From an uncultured Candidatus Saccharibacteria bacterium (GTDB lineage Bacteria; Patescibacteriota; Minisyncoccia; Phycocordibacterales; CAIZLB01), in assembly GCA_964550955.1 (NCBI GenBank), contig CAZKAF010000001.1, forward strand, positions 99,951 through 163,950: a stretch of DNA of 64,000 nucleotides. The letters run 5' to 3'. The position numbers and the translations under genes are program-made. Positions 3,793 to 46,137 of the stretch are shown here, in pieces. The notes beneath the pieces are model-generated. The model made no database searches and had not been told where the DNA came from. It was given only the letters and a program-made list of their open reading frames with translations. The number at the start of each line of letters is the position of its first letter. The first letter of the stretch is position 1.

Positions 3793-4008
3793 ATGAACAT
3801 TCCAAGAATATTTGGTTTTGATGGCCTGTCTGCGGGCCTTTCGCTGCTGCTGTCATGCATTATTTTCGCAGTCTTCTTTTTCGTGATTAGAGAATTAGTG
3901 GCCTGGTATTGGAAAATAAACAGGGCGATTGAGCTTTTGGAAAAGATAGAAATTAATACGAGAAAGTCCAGCGGCAAATATGAAAAAGGGGAAGGGGAAA
4001 AGGAGTGA
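3793..4008 (+). CDS. small hypothetical membrane protein
   Basis: 71-aa ORF with one clear hydrophobic helix; no recognisable family. Confidence 0.3.
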   Translation: MNIPRIFGFDGLSAGLSLLLSCIIFAVFFFVIRELVAWYWKINRAIELLEKIEINTRKSSGKYEKGEGEKE

Positions 4009-8116: not shown

Positions 8117-8860
8117 ATGAATCCTACGCTAATCAAAAATTGCAAATCGCTGCTCGAAGCCTTCAAGTCAGGCGGGCTTGGGCAGACGGTGATGCCTGAA
8201 GATTCGAACCCGGGCTTTTCCGACAAGGACGCGGAAATGAGAATCGCGTACTTCACGCTGCCGATGGCTTTGAACTATCAGAGAGACAGCTATAAGCTGT
8301 GGGAGGCCGCGCTTAAGACATTCAACGATTCTGAGACAAGATTCGTGTTCGACGCCGTCAAGGTTTCCGAAGCCGCCGAAGATGATGTCAGGAGGGCCTT
8401 GATGAAATATAAAGTCGCGCTCCAGCCTAACAAGCATGTGAATACCTGGAGAACGATCGCGAAGACCGTGTCGGAGAATTGGGGGTCATTCGCCAGGTTT
8501 TTCGAAGCGGCGGAAAATGATTTCTCGAATCTCAAGCAGATGGTTAAGGTTGATCATAAGAAAGGGTTTCCGTATCTGTCCGGTCCGAAAATTTTCAATT
8601 ACTGGTCATTCATCATGAGCACGTACGGCGGCATCGAGCTGTCGAATCGCGACCAGATAGAAATTGCCCCGGATACGCATATCGCTCAGTGCTCGGTCAG
8701 GCTTGGCGTCGTAACTCAGGAGGAAGCGCTGGCTTTAACCAAGGACGCGGTGTCCGAACGCTGGAGGGAATTGCTCAAGGGGAGCGGAATAGACCCGATT
8801 GACATGCATCCGCCTCTGTGGTTTTGGAGCAGGAACGGCTTTTTGTTTAAATTGGATTAA
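8117..8860 (+). CDS. hypothetical protein (possible HhH/AGOG-like DNA glycosylase; weak)
   Basis: 247-aa ORF in good coding context; no firm motif. Confidence 0.45.
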   Translation: MNPTLIKNCKSLLEAFKSGGLGQTVMPEDSNPGFSDKDAEMRIAYFTLPMALNYQRDSYKLWEAALKTFNDSETRFVFDAVKVSEAAEDDVRRALMKYKVALQPNKHVNTWRTIAKTVSENWGSFARFFEAAENDFSNLKQMVKVDHKKGFPYLSGPKIFNYWSFIMSTYGGIELSNRDQIEIAPDTHIAQCSVRLGVVTQEEALALTKDAVSERWRELLKGSGIDPIDMHPPLWFWSRNGFLFKLD

Positions 8861-35623: not shown

Positions 35624-36319
35624 ATGAAACCGATTACGACAGGACAGAGAGAGCAATTCGGAACCGTCGTCAAAGACGCGGCCCGCAAAGCGGCTGAAGA
35701 AGGGGTCACCGAACTTGAACAGGGTGGTGCTCTCGACGGCGACAGCATCCAGCGCGTCCTCGAAAAAGGAGGTGATCTGGCTGCCAAGCTGAAAGCGTTC
35801 GTGAAAACGACGCTTGCCGAAATGGCGGAAAGCATCCGCGGATGCCTCAAGTTAATCTCGGGAGCGGAAACGCTTACCCTTGATCCGACTGACGGCAAGA
35901 AGACCATCGCAAGGGCCGGCGACCTGTTCTTTTATCTCGACGGTGACTTCAAGGCCTATGGCTGCGACGTCCCCGGAAAACCGAGCCAGGGCGGTCCCGT
36001 CCAGGTTCACGAGATGGTCAAGGACGGTACCTTCGCCCAGATTTTTGGCGGATTGAGTGACAATCTCGATTCGTTGTGTCTGGAGCAGGACCAGATCATT
36101 CAGTTTGTCGAGAAGCACCGCAAGTGGCTTCGCACGGATGGGTACGGCACCTTCTTCCTGTTCAAGGTGAACGGAGAAGGCTTCGTTGCGAGCGTGCCCG
36201 TGCCCTCCGGTGGCGGCCTCTGCGCCGACGTCTCTCGCTTCTCGCGCGGCCTTGTCTGGTCTGCCCGGGATCGTCCTCGCGTGGTGGTTCCGCAACCCCT
36301 TGTGCCTCAGGTTCCCTGA
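35624..36319 (+). CDS. DGR target (variable) protein; C-terminal ~40 aa encoded by the VR
   Basis: 231 aa. The last 120 nt form the VR. The TR counterpart encodes Asn (AAC) where the VR encodes varied residues. Confidence 0.75.
   Translation: MKPITTGQREQFGTVVKDAARKAAEEGVTELEQGGALDGDSIQRVLEKGGDLAAKLKAFVKTTLAEMAESIRGCLKLISGAETLTLDPTDGKKTIARAGDLFFYLDGDFKAYGCDVPGKPSQGGPVQVHEMVKDGTFAQIFGGLSDNLDSLCLEQDQIIQFVEKHRKWLRTDGYGTFFLFKVNGEGFVASVPVPSGGGLCADVSRFSRGLVWSARDRPRVVVPQPLVPQVP
36181..36300 (+). repeat. DGR variable repeat (VR)
   Basis: About 120 bp aligned to the TR at 36668-36787; about 25 mismatches, every one at a TR adenine. Conserved 3' end GTGGTGGTTCCG. Confidence 0.85.
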
Positions 36320-36667
36320 ACCTTTGGCTCTTAGTCCCTTTGACCCTTTGTCCGCGTATGAAAATGCGTTGGCAGAGGTCAGGGGGATTTTTTTTATGCA
36401 GCGATGTCCGCGTTTACTAAAATCGCCGGCCGAGTGTATACTGAACATGCAATGCATAGACGCGTCTCGGCCACGGCTTGGATGCCATACTTGCGTCAAT
36501 GCAGGCTCGAGAATTTTGCCGGACACGTCCTGCAAAAGAGCGGGTCTGTCTTTTCAAATAAAAAATAATTAGTTGGTGCGACAAGCTGAAGGACTTCTAG
36601 GTCCTGCATAAGATTCAGCCCGTCCTGATTGGGCGGGCAGTGTACCAGATGGCTTGCCGCACGAATT

Positions 36668-36787
36668 CTTCGTTGCGAACGTGAACGTGAACTCCGATGG
36701 CAACCTCAACGCCAACGTCAATCGCTTCTCGAACGACAATGTCTGGAATGCCAAGAATCGTCATCGCGTGGTGGTTCCGAAACTCAT
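36668..36787 (+). repeat. DGR template repeat (TR), non-coding
   Basis: Adenine-rich copy of the VR with 13 AAC/AAT codons in the VR frame; not part of a credible ORF. Confidence 0.85.
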
Positions 36788-36798
36788 GATTTCTCTCA

Positions 36799-37161
36799 TC
36801 AAGACATGGTGAGAGTTTTGTTTTGGCGGGATTGCGCCAGAGGGCTTTGCAGTCCTTTTCGCCATCCTCCGAGCATCTTGCCTATTTCCTCAAGCTTCCC
36901 CGAAAGCTCTATGTATTTAGGAGTCGGCATCAGCTTGCTTTCCCATGCCAGCTGCATGAAGAACTTAAGGGCATCCAGCTTCGATATCGTGGTTCCGAGA
37001 ACATGGACTTTTTCTGCCGGCGCCATGTATATGCATGCGAAGCTCAATTCCAGCACTTCGAGAAAGATGCCTTCGATCTTCTGGCCCATGCCGAACCTTT
37101 CGGTTCTCGGGAAATTCCTATGAAGCAATAGCCAGGCTTGGTAGGCTTCCTTTTCTTTCAA
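36799..37161 (-). CDS. avd: Avd (accessory variability determinant), four-helix-bundle protein
   Basis: 120 aa. FPRTERFGMGQKIEG and KLEEIGKMLGGW match the Avd / 23S-rRNA-IVS four-helix-bundle family. TTG start. Lies on the strand opposite to TR and RT. Confidence 0.75.
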   Translation of the reverse strand: MKEKEAYQAWLLLHRNFPRTERFGMGQKIEGIFLEVLELSFACIYMAPAEKVHVLGTTISKLDALKFFMQLAWESKLMPTPKYIELSGKLEEIGKMLGGWRKGLQSPLAQSRQNKTLTMS

Positions 37162-37185
37162 GATTACGCCAGGGGTCGTTTTTGC

Positions 37186-37198
37186 GGGGGGGGGGGGG
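37186..37198. repeat. G13 homopolymer tract in the avd/RT divergent intergenic region
   Basis: gcgggggggggggggggca, seen directly. Confidence 0.8.
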
Positions 37199-37224
37199 CA
37201 GATTCATGGTTTGTATTGTGTAAT

Positions 37225-38223
37225 ATGAAAAAAATGAATATTTCCTACAACGATATCATATCTTTGGAAAATCTCTACGAAGCGTGGGCGGAGTTCGTCA
37301 ACGGCAAGAGACATAAAAGGGACGTGGCCTTGTTTGCATTAAATCTCTCGCACAATATTTTCGCGCTGCATGAGGAGCTGAAGAACAGGACGTATCGGCA
37401 TGGCGGATATAAGGCATTTGCCATCAATGATCCGAAGCCTCGAAGTATCCATAAGGCTCATGTTCGGGACAGGCTTCTGCATCATGCGGTCTATCGAACC
37501 CTGTACAGGTACTTTGACAAGAAGTTCATATTTGATTCGTACTCGTGCAGATACGCCAAAGGGACGCATAGGGCGCTCGGCCGCTTCCGTCATTTTTTCA
37601 ACAAGGTCTCTCACGGCAATCGCCGGACGTGCTGGGTGCTGAAGTGCGACGTTCGAAAATTCTTTGCGTCCATAGATCAGGGAATATTGCTGGACATATG
37701 CAAAAGGCACCTGCCGGACCAGGACATACTCTGGCTCATGCAGGATATCGTCGGCAGCTTTTATAGCACGGAAGCGGGGAAGGGCCTGCCTCTTGGAAAT
37801 CTCACGTCTCAATTGCTCGTAAACGTATACATGAATGAATTTGACCAGCATGCGAAGCATGTCCTCAAGCACCAGCATTACATTCGCTATGCCGATGATT
37901 TTGTCATCATGCATCACGATAAAAGCGAGCTGCAGAAGGCGCTTCCGAAAATAGGGGAATTCCTGCTCGATAATCTGAAATTATCGCTGCATCCCGACAA
38001 GGTGTTCATCAAGACGTTCGCGTCGGGCGTTGATTTTCTTGGCTGGGTCCATTTTCAAGATCATAGGGTTTTGCGAAATGCCACGAAGAAGAGGATGCTT
38101 AGAAATTTGAACGGAGGGGCCGCGAAAGAGGTCGTCCAGTCCTATCTCGGCCTCCTTTCTCACGGGAACGCGTTTGGGCTGAAAAGGAGGATCAAGGCCT
38201 TGATGCGCAAAACCATTGATTAG
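37225..38223 (+). CDS. DGR reverse transcriptase
   Basis: RT domains with the IRYADDFVIM (YADD) box. The N-terminus LENLYEAWAEFVNGKRHK is typical of DGR/retron RTs. ATG 37225 is preferred over the track start 37138, which would run through the G-tract. Confidence 0.9.
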   Translation: MKKMNISYNDIISLENLYEAWAEFVNGKRHKRDVALFALNLSHNIFALHEELKNRTYRHGGYKAFAINDPKPRSIHKAHVRDRLLHHAVYRTLYRYFDKKFIFDSYSCRYAKGTHRALGRFRHFFNKVSHGNRRTCWVLKCDVRKFFASIDQGILLDICKRHLPDQDILWLMQDIVGSFYSTEAGKGLPLGNLTSQLLVNVYMNEFDQHAKHVLKHQHYIRYADDFVIMHHDKSELQKALPKIGEFLLDNLKLSLHPDKVFIKTFASGVDFLGWVHFQDHRVLRNATKKRMLRNLNGGAAKEVVQSYLGLLSHGNAFGLKRRIKALMRKTID

Positions 38224-38311: not shown

Positions 38312-39055
38312 ATGACCAATTTAACTATCTCAACAGAAATGATCAAATCAACATTCATCTACGCAGGAGCGGTTCTTATTGTATTTGGTGCATATTTTTC
38401 AACTCCAATTACGGCAAGCGCTGCTACGTACCTAATCGACCTTTCAGGCAATGGCTGCGGCTCGCAATGCGCCGAACTTCAGGAATATTTGAATTCGCTT
38501 AACAGCAATAGCAATTCGAATTCGTCATCTACAAGCTCGACTGATGCGAATGGTTCTGGCGATCAGGCCACAGTTCCGACGTATCCGAACCTTCAGTACC
38601 AGTATTCGTCATCTACGCTGGCGTATTATCAGAGAAACCAGCAGCCGACGACTTCCAACTTGTATGCATATCCGACGTATTCGTACTTTGCGAATCCGGC
38701 AGGCGCGTATCCAAGTTCATACCCAGGCACTGCGTATCCGAGTGGTGCTGCATATCCGGCTCAGAACCAATATAACCCATACGGCCAGTACAATCAGTAC
38801 GGCTCGACAGGCTATGTGCCGTACCCTTCGCTTCAGTACGTGTATAACAATGGCAAGGTGGCTGGTCCTTCGACCTCCACATACGCTGCTCCCAACTATG
38901 CAGCGGAGCTGTACATGCTAGGCCGGTACCCGTCCTATGGCGCGCCGACATACGGCACTCAGTCCCAGCAGCCTTACCCTTATTACGGAACGCAGGCTTA
39001 CAATGCTCCGTTCTCGATGCAGCCTTCAGGCTTCGTCATGACTTCTGGAAAGTAA
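38312..39055 (+). CDS. secreted low-complexity Tyr/Pro/Gln/Ser-rich protein
   Basis: N-terminal TM/signal; CGSQC pair; motif YPSLQYVYNNGK; C-terminus GFVMTSGK. Paralog of the next gene. Confidence 0.55.
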   Translation: MTNLTISTEMIKSTFIYAGAVLIVFGAYFSTPITASAATYLIDLSGNGCGSQCAELQEYLNSLNSNSNSNSSSTSSTDANGSGDQATVPTYPNLQYQYSSSTLAYYQRNQQPTTSNLYAYPTYSYFANPAGAYPSSYPGTAYPSGAAYPAQNQYNPYGQYNQYGSTGYVPYPSLQYVYNNGKVAGPSTSTYAAPNYAAELYMLGRYPSYGAPTYGTQSQQPYPYYGTQAYNAPFSMQPSGFVMTSGK

Positions 39056-39145: not shown

Positions 39146-39724
39146 ATGAAGAAATTAACTTTCATTTCAGTGCTCGCTTTTGTCGTTTTCGGGTTCGCCT
39201 TCGCGGCGCGGCTGGAAGCTTGTTCAGTGTCGTACGGGTATGACTACGGCTGCGGAACGGGATATTACGGCGGCTCCTACGACGGTTACTATGGCGGAAA
39301 TGGCTACGGATACGGAACCGGATATGGAGACCAGTACAATTATGTGCAGTATCCAAGCCTGACATACGTCTACTATCAGGATCCCGGACCAAGGAACACC
39401 ATGAGCGACTACAGCTACAACTATGTGCAGTATCCGAATCTGACATACGTGTACCATGACGGCAGGACCTCTCGTCCGGCAGGCAACACGGGATATTCTT
39501 CATATCCTTCGCAGTATCCGCAGACAGGCGGCGGGAACAACAACCCGTATTATTCGCAGCAGCCTGCATATCAGCAGCAGCCGGCGTACCAGTATCAGCA
39601 GCCTGCATATCAGGCATATCAGAATCCGTATCAGTACGGGTACGGATATGCCGGCAATTCTTACGGTCAATACAGCCAATACTCCGCATACGGTGCCGGT
39701 TTCATCATGACGTCGGGGTACTAG
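39146..39724 (+). CDS. secreted low-complexity Gly/Tyr/Gln-rich protein (paralog)
   Basis: Signal peptide; Cys pair; YVQYPSLTYVYYQD and YVQYPNLTYVYHDG motifs; C-terminus GFIMTSGY. Confidence 0.55.
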   Translation: MKKLTFISVLAFVVFGFAFAARLEACSVSYGYDYGCGTGYYGGSYDGYYGGNGYGYGTGYGDQYNYVQYPSLTYVYYQDPGPRNTMSDYSYNYVQYPNLTYVYHDGRTSRPAGNTGYSSYPSQYPQTGGGNNNPYYSQQPAYQQQPAYQYQQPAYQAYQNPYQYGYGYAGNSYGQYSQYSAYGAGFIMTSGY

Positions 39725-43114: not shown

Positions 43115-43885
43115 ATGAACATTTCATCGGGTTCCGTCAAGAAAGATTTGCTCGGGATTGCCTCGAAAGAAAAAGCCTCGGTTTACGCCTGGTTTTTCAA
43201 GACTGGAAAGGGCGGGTATGGCGAAGGCGATGCATTCATCGGCGTCACCGTTCCGCAGCAGAGAGTCATCGCTAAAAAATACTCCGCCCAGTTCATGGAC
43301 CGGCATGCCGGCGAGAAGCCCGAGAAGCTGAACTCGGGCTCTTTCGCCTGGATTCAGGAGTTGCTGAACGACAAAATTCACGAATGCAGGCTGTCCGCGC
43401 TGATGATTCTCGCATACCTGTACAAGCATAAGAAAGCTGATAGGCGCCTCAAGGAATCGGCGTACAAGCTCTATCTTAAAAACTTCAAGAACATAAACAA
43501 CTGGGACTTGGTCGACTGCAGCGCGAGGGACATCGTCGGCGGCTATTTGCATGAGTTCGGGCATGGCGATGTCTTGGCAACGCTCTCTGTCTGGGCGGAT
43601 TCAAGCCACCTTTGGACTCGGCGAATCTCCGTCATCGCGACGCATTATTTCATCGGCAGGGGAGAGTTAGGGCCGACGCTTTTCATTTCGAAAAAGCTTC
43701 TCGGCGACAGGCATGATCTGATTCATAAGGCGAGCGGCTGGATGCTGAGGGAAGCGGGAAAGAAGAGCGAAAAAGCCCTTACGCGTTTCCTTGACGAGCA
43801 TCATAAGCGAATGCCTCGAACGATGCTCAGATATGCCATTGAACGGCTGTCACCCGAGCAGAAAGCGCGTTATATGAAGAGATAG
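43115..43885 (+). CDS. DNA alkylation repair enzyme (AlkD-like HEAT-repeat, PF08713-like)
   Basis: 256-aa alpha-helical repeat protein, WDLVDCSARDIVGGYL region. Confidence 0.5.
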   Translation: MNISSGSVKKDLLGIASKEKASVYAWFFKTGKGGYGEGDAFIGVTVPQQRVIAKKYSAQFMDRHAGEKPEKLNSGSFAWIQELLNDKIHECRLSALMILAYLYKHKKADRRLKESAYKLYLKNFKNINNWDLVDCSARDIVGGYLHEFGHGDVLATLSVWADSSHLWTRRISVIATHYFIGRGELGPTLFISKKLLGDRHDLIHKASGWMLREAGKKSEKALTRFLDEHHKRMPRTMLRYAIERLSPEQKARYMKR

Positions 43886-44050: not shown

Positions 44051-44559
44051 TCCCCTGTAGCTCAGCGGTAGAGCAATCGACTGTGAACGTGTCCTGCCTT
44101 TGATATACTCCAAAGTATGTTGAAAAAGAGGACATATGCTGATCGTGCGCCATATATGATTGAAGCTGTCAGAAAGCGGAGAATAAAGCTTCGCAAGATG
44201 GCCAGAGAGTATAAAGGCGGCAAATGTGAGATTTGCTAAATTCGCGAAGGCATAACGCAGCTTCCGGTACGAAAGTCCGGTCGCAAATAAGGTGAATTGC
44301 TGGAAGTCCTGATTCTCATGTCAGGATAATCAGCAGCCAAGCTCGGCAAGAAATTGCCTTGAAGGTTCAGAGACTATCCCTTCGGGGAGTAGTCGGATGC
44401 AGGTAGCAATGCAAAGCGTTCGACGAAGCGCCTTACGTCTAAACATGTATAAGTGCAGCAATGCAAAATTCATGCATGACGATGATATAGTCCACACCGT
44501 CAGTAATGATGGATAAACGTGTAATCGATTGGTCGTAGGTTCGATCCCTACCGGGGGAG
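44051..44559 (+). tRNA. tRNA gene split by a group I intron in the anticodon loop (anticodon UGU/Thr or GUU/Asn depending on exact junction)
   Basis: 5' exon: TCCCCTG-TA-GCTC-AGCGGTA-GAGC-A-ATCGA-CT... 3' exon: ...TGTAA-TCGAT-TGGTC-GTAGG-TTCGATC-CCTAC-CGGGGGA-G. The acceptor stem pairs across 435 nt. Confidence 0.7.
44083..44519 (+). ncRNA. group I self-splicing intron (no ORF)
   Basis: R element TTCAGAGACTAT (44366-77) and S element GATGATATAGTCC (44481-93) supply the P7 pairing GACTA/TAGTC. A G precedes the candidate 3' splice sites, a U precedes the 5' splice sites. Confidence 0.65.
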
Positions 44560-44561
44560 CA
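44542..44561 (+). repeat. attL: 20-bp core (tRNA 3' end)
   Basis: cgatccctaccgggggagca, identical to 52691-52710. Confidence 0.7.
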
Positions 44562-46137
44562 TTGAAGGATGAGAAGGCACGAAAGTGCCTTTTTGTCTTT
44601 GTGGCATAAGGGTATTATCTGGTTCGTAGCACTCTGAAAGCCTCGGCATCCATTCCACGAAATACTTAGCCAATAAAGTTAAATCCGACTTTATTTCTAG
44701 GCTGTTTTGCCAGAAGTTCGTAAACAATTGGTTGAACAAAACTCGCTTGTCGTCATTCTCTGCCATCTCATAGATTGCATCCGCGTTAAACGCCAATTCA
44801 TGGACAATGAGAGCTAGATTCTGGTACTCATCAGACTGATTATTAATACGAACCAGGGCGCTTTGGAAATTCTCTTCCTCAGCTGAAATATGGGCTATTT
44901 GGCGCTCACAGAATTCAAGCGGAACTGTACCTTCGAGCTTAGCCATATAAATTTTATCCTTCTTGGTTCGTATCATACCTAAGTGAGTGTTTAGACGATG
45001 AATTTCATTCTCGCGTTCTCCAATTTTCTCTTTGAACTCGCAACAAATAACATCCTCAATCCATTTGAGTAGGTCTTTGTTCTTGGGTGCAATTTTCTTG
45101 AATATGGGTCTAAGTTGCTCCTCAACCTTTTCTTCGCGGATATAGGTCTTTTTAGGGCATTTACGAGAGGTCAGGTGGTTATTGCAATGTCCGTACCAAT
45201 GACTCTTTTGCTTCTCCCAAGTCAAAGATTTGCCGCAGCCTTCACAGACAATCATTGTCTTGAATAGCGGGTTGTGAATATTGAATCGCGGCTGATTTAT
45301 CTTTCGCTTTAATATCTTCTGCACTTTATCAAATAGGTCTCTTCCAATTATTGGCTCATGCTTACCGCTGTATTTCTGGCTTTTCCATAAGAAAGAACCG
45401 TAATAGAAAGGGTCTTGAATTAAGACATGCAATCTCTTATGAAGAACTCTTTTTCCGCTTCTGGCGCGCAGACCACGACTGTAAAGCTCCTCTTCTAATT
45501 TTGTTAAAGAGTAGTTTCCAGTGGCGTATAAATCAAACATGTCGCGCATAAGCGGGGCAACACCCTTATCAATAACATGTATCTTCTTTCCCTTGTCTCC
45601 TATGGTCATATAGCCCAAAGGTGGTTTTGTTGGCAGCCAACCTTCAGCTATCTTTTCAACTTGCCCTTTCTTAACTTCTTCAGAAAGGTTAGCGATATAT
45701 TTCTTAGCTAATACGATTTCAATATCCCATCTGAACTTTTCATCAGACTTGGCATTTTTATGAATTACTAAGTTCTGTTTTACAAAGTGGATATATCTGT
45801 TTTCGTCTTGCTCAAGCCAATCATTAATAACAACAGCTTCCTTAAGATTTCTTGTAAGCCTGTCCACTTTCTCACAGAGTAAGTGAGATATATTATTCTT
45901 TACAAGAAATTCCATCATTTCCCCAAAGACCTTTCTTTGTTTCGAGCCGCTGGCGCTTTCAGCAATACAGAATTCTTTAATAAGGTTGAATCCCTTTTGG
46001 TCAGAACGTTCCTTTAGTAATTTACTTTGAGCGGGAAGGGAATAACCTGTTTCCTCCTGTTCTCTGGTAGAGACACGGCAGTACATGGCTGCGCGATTAT
46101 TCGCCCCAAGTGATGGGGCTTGTTTCTGGGTCTTCAT
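44548..46137 (-). CDS. large serine recombinase (integrase)
   Basis: N-terminal resolvase catalytic domain (AAMYCRVSTREQ). Recombinase domain. Zinc ribbon CEGCGK...CPKK. Coiled-coil. The last 4 codons overlap the tRNA 3' end. Confidence 0.85.
   Translation of the reverse strand: MKTQKQAPSLGANNRAAMYCRVSTREQEETGYSLPAQSKLLKERSDQKGFNLIKEFCIAESASGSKQRKVFGEMMEFLVKNNISHLLCEKVDRLTRNLKEAVVINDWLEQDENRYIHFVKQNLVIHKNAKSDEKFRWDIEIVLAKKYIANLSEEVKKGQVEKIAEGWLPTKPPLGYMTIGDKGKKIHVIDKGVAPLMRDMFDLYATGNYSLTKLEEELYSRGLRARSGKRVLHKRLHVLIQDPFYYGSFLWKSQKYSGKHEPIIGRDLFDKVQKILKRKINQPRFNIHNPLFKTMIVCEGCGKSLTWEKQKSHWYGHCNNHLTSRKCPKKTYIREEKVEEQLRPIFKKIAPKNKDLLKWIEDVICCEFKEKIGERENEIHRLNTHLGMIRTKKDKIYMAKLEGTVPLEFCERQIAHISAEEENFQSALVRINNQSDEYQNLALIVHELAFNADAIYEMAENDDKRVLFNQLFTNFWQNSLEIKSDLTLLAKYFVEWMPRLSECYEPDNTLMPQRQKGTFVPSHPSMLPR

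Follow-up and report, generated by a model that had tools for sequence, protein, structure and literature searches.

The subject of this report is a diversity-generating retroelement (DGR) in a 64 000-nucleotide stretch of DNA from an uncultured Candidatus Saccharibacteria bacterium (assembly GCA_964550955.1, contig CAZKAF010000001.1, positions 99 951 to 163 950; this whole stretch is referred to below as the window). The locus is a complete DGR, in the order target gene with its variable repeat (VR), template repeat (TR), avd on the reverse strand and reverse transcriptase (RT), and an uninterrupted run of 13 guanines (G13) lies at the junction between avd and the RT gene (Table 1). Comparison with related loci suggests that this tract is located inside the 5'-terminal part of the avd reading frame, at about codons 4 to 8, where it would encode a run of prolines, and the reading that we consider probable is that slippage in the tract moves Avd in and out of frame, that is, frameshift-type phase variation. 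In the sequences compared, the position of the repeat is conserved and its length is hypervariable, the frames on both sides are conserved and intact, and an ATG beyond the repeat is constrained at the nucleotide level; from this pattern, we infer the start of translation at that ATG (37207–37205), the lack of Avd in out-of-frame alleles and the adaptive character of the switching.

The relatives were collected by scans with the RT protein, which yielded 40 loci from species-representative genomes and 80 loci from metagenomes, with 50–69% RT identity; no locus with more than 69% RT identity and none from the species of the window was found in the scanned genome and metagenome contigs. The named genome loci mostly come from metagenome-assembled genomes (MAGs) annotated as Patescibacteria or candidate phyla radiation (CPR). 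Sufficient upstream DNA was available for 98 loci, an Avd homolog was detected in 93 of these, and in all 93, avd is encoded on the opposite strand, directly upstream of the RT gene. In 78 of the 93, the short gap between avd and the RT gene (27–77 bp) contains a repeat of at least 7 nucleotides (nt): G7 to G16 in 40 loci, (GA)n or (AG)n with 5–17 units in 32, (GT)n with 12–18 units in 4, the heptamer repeat (TTGCTGA)3 in 1 and, in 1 more (L010), a poly-C call at a scaffolding gap. The remaining 15 loci have no repeat of this length, but most of these have a short or degenerate purine tract, for example, G6, GGGGGGTGGG or AGAAGGAGAAAGAAGAAG.

The concentration of repeats at this site is extreme. 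The gaps, 7.4 kb altogether, contain 39 runs of at least eight G or C, compared with a single such run in 552 kb of the flanking sequences of the same loci, and 36 dinucleotide repeats of at least five units, compared with none in the flanks. In the window, G13 is the sole G or C run of at least eight nucleotides within 64 kb and, accordingly, is far beyond chance. A repeat is present in ∼40 of the 49 clusters obtained at 80% RT identity, with the motif varying inside clusters, so that what appears to be conserved is the presence of a repeat at this place and no particular sequence. The repeat units are 1, 2 or 7 nt long and never a multiple of 3, the lengths of the repeats in the relatives span 7–36 nt, and the distance from the repeat to the Avd core is 16–24 nt in most loci, most commonly 18–20.

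The length of the repeat varies between loci that are otherwise nearly the same. The length-polymorphism set consists of six pairs of loci with 0–4 mismatches per 600 nt of flanking sequence: with identical 600-nt flanks, (GA)12 is found opposite (GA)9, G10 opposite G8, and (GT)18 opposite (GT)16, and with 1–4 flank mismatches, G8 opposite G11, G11 opposite G12, and (AG)8 opposite (AG)9. The repeat therefore mutates much faster than its surroundings. In one pair (L027 and L100) and in a more diverged one (L032 and L033), one member is in frame and the partner is out of frame. Several pairs with the same repeat length apparently represent one contig deposited twice, as a MAG and as its source metagenome. 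An earlier reading of the window from the sequence alone (hereafter, the sequence-only reading) had singled out the tract as a candidate slipped-strand switch and had suggested that its length be compared with that in related contigs; the recurrence of a repeat at the same position in 78 of 93 relatives and the difference in its length between loci with identical flanks strengthen this candidate, and the comparison of contigs reveals the polymorphism in six near-identical pairs. The conservation of the Avd-like open reading frame (ORF), on which that reading had made its interpretation conditional, holds for every relative in which an Avd was detected (93/93).

The annotated start of avd, the TTG at 37161, which the sequence-only reading had adopted, is probably wrong. 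In the relatives, the position of this codon is occupied by CTC or TTA (Leu), CAG and other non-start codons; no ATG, GTG or TTG is present between the repeat and the Avd core in 33 of the 63 repeat-bearing loci; and the avd frame is free of stop codons through the 16–34 nt flank and the repeat in all 74 non-redundant loci. Furthermore, the residues encoded 5' of the old start are conserved, namely, P-x-V-I-L before KEKEAY in the clade of the window and A-S-I-L before QRIKEGY in the clade with (GA)n repeats. In one locus of the latter clade (L009), (TC)9 is separated from the old 'start' by 18 nt, GAT AAC GCC TCG ATT CTC, which encode DNASIL, in agreement with the in-frame sequence of repeat-free loci.

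Beyond the repeat, the frame and the sequence similarity continue to an ATG, at 37207–37205 in the window. On the RT strand, this triplet is a His codon: codon 6 (or 5) of the RT gene is CAT in 59 of the 74 loci and CAC in none (0/74), with CAC accounting for 38% of the His codons elsewhere in the same RT genes. The use of CAT and never CAC points to a constraint at the nucleotide level, that is, the maintenance of an ATG on the avd strand. In almost all loci, the ORF that begins with the conserved ATG is open up to the repeat; the repeat itself is translated as poly-Pro, (Ser-Leu)n or (Thr-His)n. In 9 of the 11 repeat-free loci, the conserved ATG is in frame with Avd; thus, where the repeat is lost, the frame matters. 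With this start, avd and the RT gene (ATG at 37225) of the window would be separated by only 17 bp of intergenic sequence (37208–37224).

Virtual translation from this ATG illustrates what a change in the tract length would entail. With G12, the product is a 135-amino acid (aa) Avd that starts with MNLPPPPAKTTPGVILKEKEAYQ and aligns end to end with the in-frame relatives, and G15 yields a protein of 136 aa; the tract as assembled, G13, would yield a peptide that ends after 29 codons, out of frame with the core, and G14 one that ends after 14. Under the proposed mechanism, replication slippage would alter the length of the tract and thereby put the Avd core in or out of frame with the ATG. Because cDNA synthesis in the studied Bordetella DGR depends on both the RT and Avd, the tract would switch mutagenic retrohoming and would act as a heritable, reversible and stochastic on/off switch, such that a minority of cells would diversify the target protein, and switching off would lock a variant in. 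Reversibility, rather than decay, is suggested by the intact avd core, which is full length in 70 of 71 loci, combined with the existence of out-of-frame alleles that have diversified VRs. The repeats have the features of translational contingency genes, namely, a length sufficient for slippage, which for G/C runs is 7–8 or more, a unit that is not a multiple of three and length polymorphism, and the comparison with relatives places the repeat downstream of the start codon, inside the frame. A distinct situation is seen in the avd–RT gaps of loci L012 and L056, which have the same flanks, with G10 in one and GGGGGGTGGG in the other, and are both out of frame with the conserved ATG; the interruption in L056 would stabilize the tract, and this locus may be locked off.

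In the sister clade with (GA)n repeats, the involvement of the repeat in coding seems to extend to the RT. In 21 of the 25 (GA)n loci, the RT frame is devoid of ATG, GTG and TTG from the repeat to the conserved Tyr8. In all 25, the plus-strand frame that is in phase with the avd codons has no stop in at least the 25 codons that precede the repeat and contains an in-frame ATG, which is located 63–70 nt upstream of the repeat in nearly all of them and is the complement of the His codon in the Avd motif PHIPK. Within the first 22 avd codons past the repeat, TTA, CTA and TCA, which would be stops in the antisense frame, are avoided: there are 0 among 550 codons, compared with 5.9% in the rest of avd and with 7.7% in the same avd segment of the poly-G clade. 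The simplest reading of these sequence features is that the RT of the (GA)n clade starts inside the antisense of avd, with the repeat read as (Glu-Arg)n. In these loci (L009, L018–L027 and L066–L111), avd and the RT gene show an apparent head-to-head overlap of ∼110–125 nt, with the codons in phase; the region extends from ∼70 nt upstream to ∼25 nt downstream of the repeat.

Each of the two start codons in the (GA)n clade complements a His codon of the other gene. With complementary start codons and codons in phase, both genes are in frame at the same repeat lengths, so that a single repeat probably switches avd and RT together. The association between an in-frame avd and an RT in frame with the upstream ATG was discarded as independent evidence because it is a mathematical consequence of the phased codons; the independent evidence comes from the avoidance of TTA, CTA and TCA. 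In the poly-G clade, the corresponding antisense frame is closed (median of 3 codons) and the RT gene has its own ATG past the tract; therefore, only avd would be gated in the clade to which the window belongs. Phase variation of the poly-G clade RT through a start just 5' of the G tract was considered and rejected given that such a start is found in about half of the loci, as base composition predicts. Thus, of the proposal in the sequence-only reading that the tract gates avd, RT or both, the part on avd probably holds in the poly-G clade and the part on RT is not supported there, whereas in the (GA)n clade, both probably hold.

The sequence upstream of the conserved ATG contains putative signals for the expression of avd. 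A position matrix built from 54 unique relatives has ATGATAT(C/T)AT at positions −17 to −8 from the avd ATG, that is, the extended −10 pattern TGnTATYAT, located 7 nt upstream of the ATG. The G of the TG corresponds to the third base of codon 11 of the RT gene, where ATC is used in 61 of 68 Ile codons, compared with 25% elsewhere; the neighboring Ile codon 12 shows normal codon usage. We hypothesize that TGnTATYAT is the avd promoter and gives rise to a leaderless avd mRNA that begins with the ATG, which would explain the strict need for this codon. A second conserved minus-strand ATG, within GATATCAT (RT codons 11–12), was considered as the avd start, but the fixed 7-nt spacing to the first ATG makes its interpretation as the TG of the extended −10 preferable; under the less favored view that it is a start, some loci would be 'on' in two of the three phases.

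The sequence-only reading had placed the tract in a divergent promoter, and an accordingly different switch would be transcriptional, with the repeat setting the −35/−10 spacing or the face-of-the-helix geometry of a common promoter. As annotated, the tract indeed separates two divergent genes; a −10-like hexamer starting with TA (TAATAT, TATAAT, TAGTAT) follows it immediately on the RT strand in 15 of 24 poly-G relatives; and the RT gene would need a nearby promoter if the TR transcripts stop at the hairpin described below. We nevertheless regard this possibility as improbable. Repeats of 7–36 nt do not fit a spacer of 16–18 nt, and the avd frame and the similarity of the encoded proteins continue across the flank and the repeat. 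In half of the loci, no start codon is found between the Avd core and the repeat, and both the conserved ATG and the −10-like avd motif are located on the other side of the repeat. A promoter scan found no −35/−10 pair around the tract; its one match, upstream of the TR (36413–36442), is at the level expected by chance (1 found versus 1.2 expected). Thus, the placement in a promoter gives way to one inside the 5' end of avd.

Data on the strain of the window itself come from two Logan contigs of run SRR16797981, which match the window with 100% identity on both flanks of the tract. Exact look-ups retrieved these contigs with the target protein and with the product of the gene that follows the RT gene as queries, and gave no matches with the 120-aa Avd or with any of three start variants of the RT. 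One of these contigs ends right after the 13th G, and the other opens with 15 Gs followed by CAGATTCATGG. The assembly graph of this run is broken at the tract, and at least one read path carries at least 15 Gs, 15 being an in-frame length. These contigs partially support heterogeneity of the tract length in the strain of the window as the cause of the break. Breaks of this kind are also seen among the relatives: in L010 (∼650–800) and L031 (∼3970–4000), runs of N adjoin the repeat, and L010 additionally has 41 Cs, so that these public assemblies are scaffolded or broken at the repeat in the same way as the Logan contigs.

The breakage of same-strain public contigs exactly at the tract, along with the runs of N beside the repeat in some relatives, is also what could be expected if the tract were a poly-G read error or a chimeric join, with avd inverted by misassembly. 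Yet, the gene order, the orientation and the position of the repeat are the same in 93 loci that come from many studies and were assembled independently, both sides of the tract are identical in the independent Logan contigs, and coherent, conserved coding sequence flanks it, which makes an artefact extremely unlikely and effectively refutes it with regard to the existence of the tract, the exact length (13 as opposed to 12, 14 or 15) being uncertain. The recurrence of a repeat at the same position in 78 of 93 relatives similarly disposes of the homopolymer artefact that the sequence-only reading had allowed for. An assembly inversion can be dismissed because the reverse-strand placement of avd is already known and recurrent.

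Several observations weigh against a frameshift switch, and one of these concerns the frame itself. Among the 62 repeat-bearing loci, the conserved ATG is in frame with Avd in 12, and the two other frames are found in 26 and 24, so that the in-frame fraction does not exceed one third, the value expected for an irrelevant frame. This count fits a switch that is mostly off, but equally fits restoration of the frame by RNA polymerase slippage or +1 ribosomal slippage. The latter interpretation is part of the main rival explanation, which we consider unlikely, although less so than the others discussed here, namely, that the repeat is a dimmer or a neutral by-product that has grown from the purine-rich ribosome-binding region of the RT gene. 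In this view, some in-frame Avd would be produced at any tract length, and variation in the length would neither turn Avd on or off nor be favored by selection. Apart from the near-random distribution of the frames (12/26/24), such an origin is suggested by the repeat-free loci, in which a purine-rich tract lies just 5' of a TTG start of the RT gene, for example, AGAAGGAGAAAGAAGAAG-TTG. It is well established that RNA polymerase slips on long homopolymers and that +1 slippage takes place at CCC-C codons; however, efficient transcriptional or ribosomal frame correction is not known for dinucleotide or heptamer repeats. Furthermore, the persistence of long repeats in ∼40 of 49 lineages despite motif turnover is hard to account for without selection, and the in-frame state is fixed in 9 of the 11 loci where the repeat was lost.

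The other points that have to be held against the frameshift switch concern particular pieces of the evidence. The repeat is always G-rich on the RT strand and its complement is never found there, indicating a sequence constraint beyond slipperiness, which is best explained by the origin of the repeat from the purine-rich tract before the RT start. Many of the loci share common ancestry, which inflates the counts relative to the number of independent cases. In the window, the −10-like hexamer CACAAT (Table 1) is weak, lacks the TG and agrees with the matrix only at A2, A4, A5 and T6, and the lack of a −35/−10 pair around the tract in the promoter scan also speaks against an avd promoter there. 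Some internal initiation at the TTG at 37161 could occur in the window. The break in the Logan contigs could stem from poly-G read errors, and short-read assembly can miscount a homopolymer by one nucleotide. With all these points taken into account, the frameshift switch is still the reading that we favor; the broader proposition that the CPR-clade-wide repeat in the 5' end of avd, extending to both genes in the (GA)n clade, is a selected stochastic switch on a targeted mutator appears evenly balanced.

The features that define a DGR are all found at this locus, namely, a DGR-type RT, an adenine-biased TR/VR pair with the VR at the 3' end of the target gene, and an Avd. The RT translation contains LGNLTSQ and YADD, which are typical of DGR enzymes, and the 120-aa ORF matches the Pfam family bAvd with an E-value of 1.5e-13 and a score of 51.6 bits (curated cut-off of this family, 40 bits); the 231-aa target protein has no Pfam domain match. 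The 3' end of the TR and the VR have a common GC-rich block, CGCGTGGTGGTTCCG, that resembles an initiation of mutagenic homing (IMH) element. All 25 internal differences between the TR and the VR are at TR adenines (A to C, 11; A to G, 10; A to T, 4), and the two T to G differences mark the 5' edge, outside the true repeat; the differences at adenines attest to past DGR activity only. The coordinates of the minus-strand avd ORF, of G13, of the RT start and of the 63-bp gap between the TTG at 37161 and the ATG at 37225 are all as the sequence-only reading had them, and the end of the TR, which it had put at about 36787, is at 36783/4. A small hairpin, GGTTC-CCT-GAACC (36310–36322, plus strand), spans the stop codon of the target gene, 14 nt past the VR, and may be the counterpart of the GC-rich inverted repeat that follows the VR in other DGRs.

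Table 1. Coordinates of the DGR features in the window
Feature	Positions	Strand	Remarks
DGR target gene	35624..36319	+	ORF, 231 aa; VR at the 3'/C-terminal end
Variable repeat (VR)	36181..36296	+	116 nt; direct repeat family D1; 487 nt upstream of TR
Template repeat (TR)	36668..36783	+	Repeat partner of VR
Terminator-like hairpin	36793..36825	+	CTCTCATCA-AGACA-TGGTGAGAG, 9 bp, then TTTTGTTTTG; directly after TR
avd core	36799..37161	-	bAvd domain (PF22296), four-helix bundle; 120 aa from TTG
Proposed true 5' end of avd	37162..37207	-	ATG 37207–37205, AAT CTG, C13 (poly-Pro), AKTTPGVI
G13 simple-sequence repeat	37186..37198	.	C13 on the avd strand; proposed slipped-strand switch
Weak -10-like hexamer CACAAT	37215..37220	-	7 nt upstream of the avd ATG; putative TGnTATYAT counterpart
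DGR reverse transcriptase (RT)	37225..38223	+	Start ATG 37225 or ATG 37234; RVT_1, E=5.8e-22

The architecture of the locus, which the sequence-only reading had regarded as unusual, is in fact ordinary for this clade. The arrangement TR-(avd)-RT with a reverse-strand avd was described as architecture B3 (Wu et al. 2018, PMC5758913), and the window has precisely this order, TR, avd, RT, with avd reversed, as do the relatives with respect to the opposite orientation of avd (93/93). The layout with a reverse-strand avd is, therefore, already known and is standard in CPR/Patescibacteria. The B3 DGRs of CPR, which belong to DGR clade 2 (Roux et al. 2021, PMC8144416), have the same parts as the window, in the same order and orientation, and the locus analyzed here is a member of this CPR B3 family. 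An adenine-biased TR with a VR partner adjoins the 3' end of avd in 52 of the 57 loci tested, with the VR partner usually ∼450–500 nt upstream of the TR on the same strand, and the closest relatives of the RT are those of loci with TR/VR pairs. One of the relatives (L015) has a second Avd-like match on the minus strand of the locus (8424–8741), ∼4.5 kb downstream of the RT gene, which suggests another DGR cassette nearby in that genome.

The DGR of Bordetella phage BPP-1 (mtd-avd-TR-brt), which is the prototype of these elements, resembles that of the window in encoding an RT with the I/LGxxxSQ and YxDD motifs and an Avd partner that is a four-helix bundle, in the adenine-specific TR-to-VR differences and in the GC-rich, IMH-like end of the repeat. 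The organization differs, however, in that avd, TR and brt are co-directional in BPP-1, whereas avd is on the other strand in the window. Also, in BPP-1, a spacer of ∼140 nt after the TR belongs to the DGR RNA, whereas in the window, a hairpin begins no more than 10 nt past the TR and the predicted spacer RNA is ∼40 nt long; and in the window, the slippery repeat interrupts avd.

This hairpin has the hallmarks of an intrinsic terminator, a GC-rich stem-loop with a T run 3' of it on the transcribed strand; it extends over the final codons and the stop codon of avd and is present in both the minimum free energy and the centroid folds. On the TR strand, a hairpin with a T tract is found in the region of the avd stop in 56 of 65 relatives, compared with 2 of 65 on the opposite strand of the same region and 18 of 612 random 90-nt windows (3%). 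The stems vary in sequence between loci while the hairpin is kept, and the T tract has the form TTTT[CG]TTTT (L002–L120). We propose that 36793–36825 represents the 3' end of the TR RNA. Termination at this hairpin would restrict the antisense overlap between the TR RNA and avd to ∼27 nt and would preclude co-transcription of the TR with the RT gene, so that the claim of the sequence-only reading that TR transcripts reading toward the RT gene are antisense to avd is not supported. Alternatively, the hairpin could be a functional part of the DGR RNA, and it may define a very short 3' region of the DGR RNA in CPR DGRs. The fold of the whole TR with the hairpin is as stable as those of shuffled sequences (z = −0.02); the support, which comes from conservation, is for the local hairpin only.

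The predicted end of the TR RNA also bears on the possibility that the repeat is a structural element, such as a G-quadruplex, a triplex-forming polypurine or a priming or blocking site, with a role in RNA processing, cDNA synthesis or insulation of the genes. The invariable presence of G on the RT/TR-sense strand (G, GA or GT, never the complement) and the degenerate purine-rich tracts that remain where the repeat was lost would be compatible with such a role. However, motifs as different as G13, (GA)17, (GT)18 and (TTGCTGA)3 can hardly form one and the same structure, 15 of the 93 loci do without a repeat, the TR RNA, which is predicted to end at the hairpin, would stop ∼360 nt short of the tract, and no Rfam family matches in the region, so this alternative appears very unlikely.

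The closest functional analogs of the proposed frameshift switch are contingency loci with simple-sequence repeats in the 5' part of the coding region, such as the poly-G tracts of Campylobacter jejuni, hmbR of Neisseria meningitidis and (CAAT)n in Haemophilus lic1. The similarities include a non-triplet unit near the 5' end of the ORF, a tolerant, low-complexity N-terminal peptide, variation in length among near-identical strains and a mixture of in-frame and out-of-frame alleles of genes that are otherwise intact. However, contingency loci mostly control surface structures, restriction-modification systems or methyltransferases in host-associated pathogens, whereas the function controlled here would be a targeted mutator in free-living or episymbiotic uncultured bacteria, and in the (GA)n clade, a single repeat would lie within two overlapping divergent genes. 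In the hifA/hifB system of Haemophilus influenzae, (TA)n located in overlapping divergent promoters sets the −35/−10 spacing and so acts on transcription. The DGR loci are similar to this system in that one repeat between two divergent genes could control both, but differ from it in that the DGR repeat appears to be translated and, at 7–36 nt, does not fit a promoter spacer. Phasevarions, which involve mod methyltransferases, and phage contingency loci (PMC12633550) likewise place a stochastic repeat switch on a master function; however, the program under control in the DGR would be the diversification of one target protein, as opposed to methylation-dependent expression or host range.

The surroundings of the DGR include two tandem genes just 3' of the RT gene (38312–39055 and 39146–39724, both on the plus strand), which encode low-complexity proteins rich in Tyr, Gly, Gln, Pro and Ser, with an N-terminal hydrophobic segment and a common C-terminal motif, F[VI]MTSG[KY]; neither protein has a Pfam match. 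The Rfam scan of the window detected no family at the DGR, the sole match being a group I catalytic intron elsewhere (44195–44513, plus strand; RF00028, 67.6 bits, full-length model match), which sits between the ORFs at 43115–43885 (plus strand) and 44548–46137 (minus strand). No tRNA or rRNA gene was detected anywhere in the 64-kb window.

In full-text searches of the literature, the scope of which does not extend to Paul et al. 2017, no report that joins DGRs with simple repeats or phase variation was found. The surveys in which the B3 architecture and DGR clade 2 were described (Wu et al. 2018, PMC5758913; Roux et al. 2021, PMC8144416) do not mention the repeat at the avd/RT junction, and neither the longer avd frame nor the head-to-head overlap of avd and RT is mentioned in the DGR papers covered. 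What is new here, then, is a candidate contingency-type switch on a targeted mutator, along with, in one clade, a repeat that appears to be located within two overlapping divergent genes. The DGRs of CPR (clade 2) show lower-than-average activity (PMC8144416), and a 2024 preprint notes that regulatory mechanisms for retrohoming 'await discovery'. Both statements fit a switch that is mostly off but are not evidence for one.

There are also practical implications. Gene callers misplace the start of avd or truncate the gene and probably misplace the RT start in the (GA)n clade as well. For reconstitution of CPR DGRs, an in-frame tract length and the longer avd are advisable. Metagenomic reads give access to the phase of the repeat, which can be set against the VR microdiversity of the same sample and could serve as a covariate in surveys of DGR activity. 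More generally, how mutagenic retrohoming is limited such that useful variants are kept is an acknowledged open question for DGR hosts, and the conserved slippery repeat in avd provides a concrete hypothesis, testable on sequence data alone, for a very large group of uncultured bacteria. If this hypothesis is correct, bacteria with tiny genomes and few regulators would generate variants of a surface protein in a minority of the population and subsequently lock in the successful ones, which would explain the low apparent activity of the CPR DGRs.

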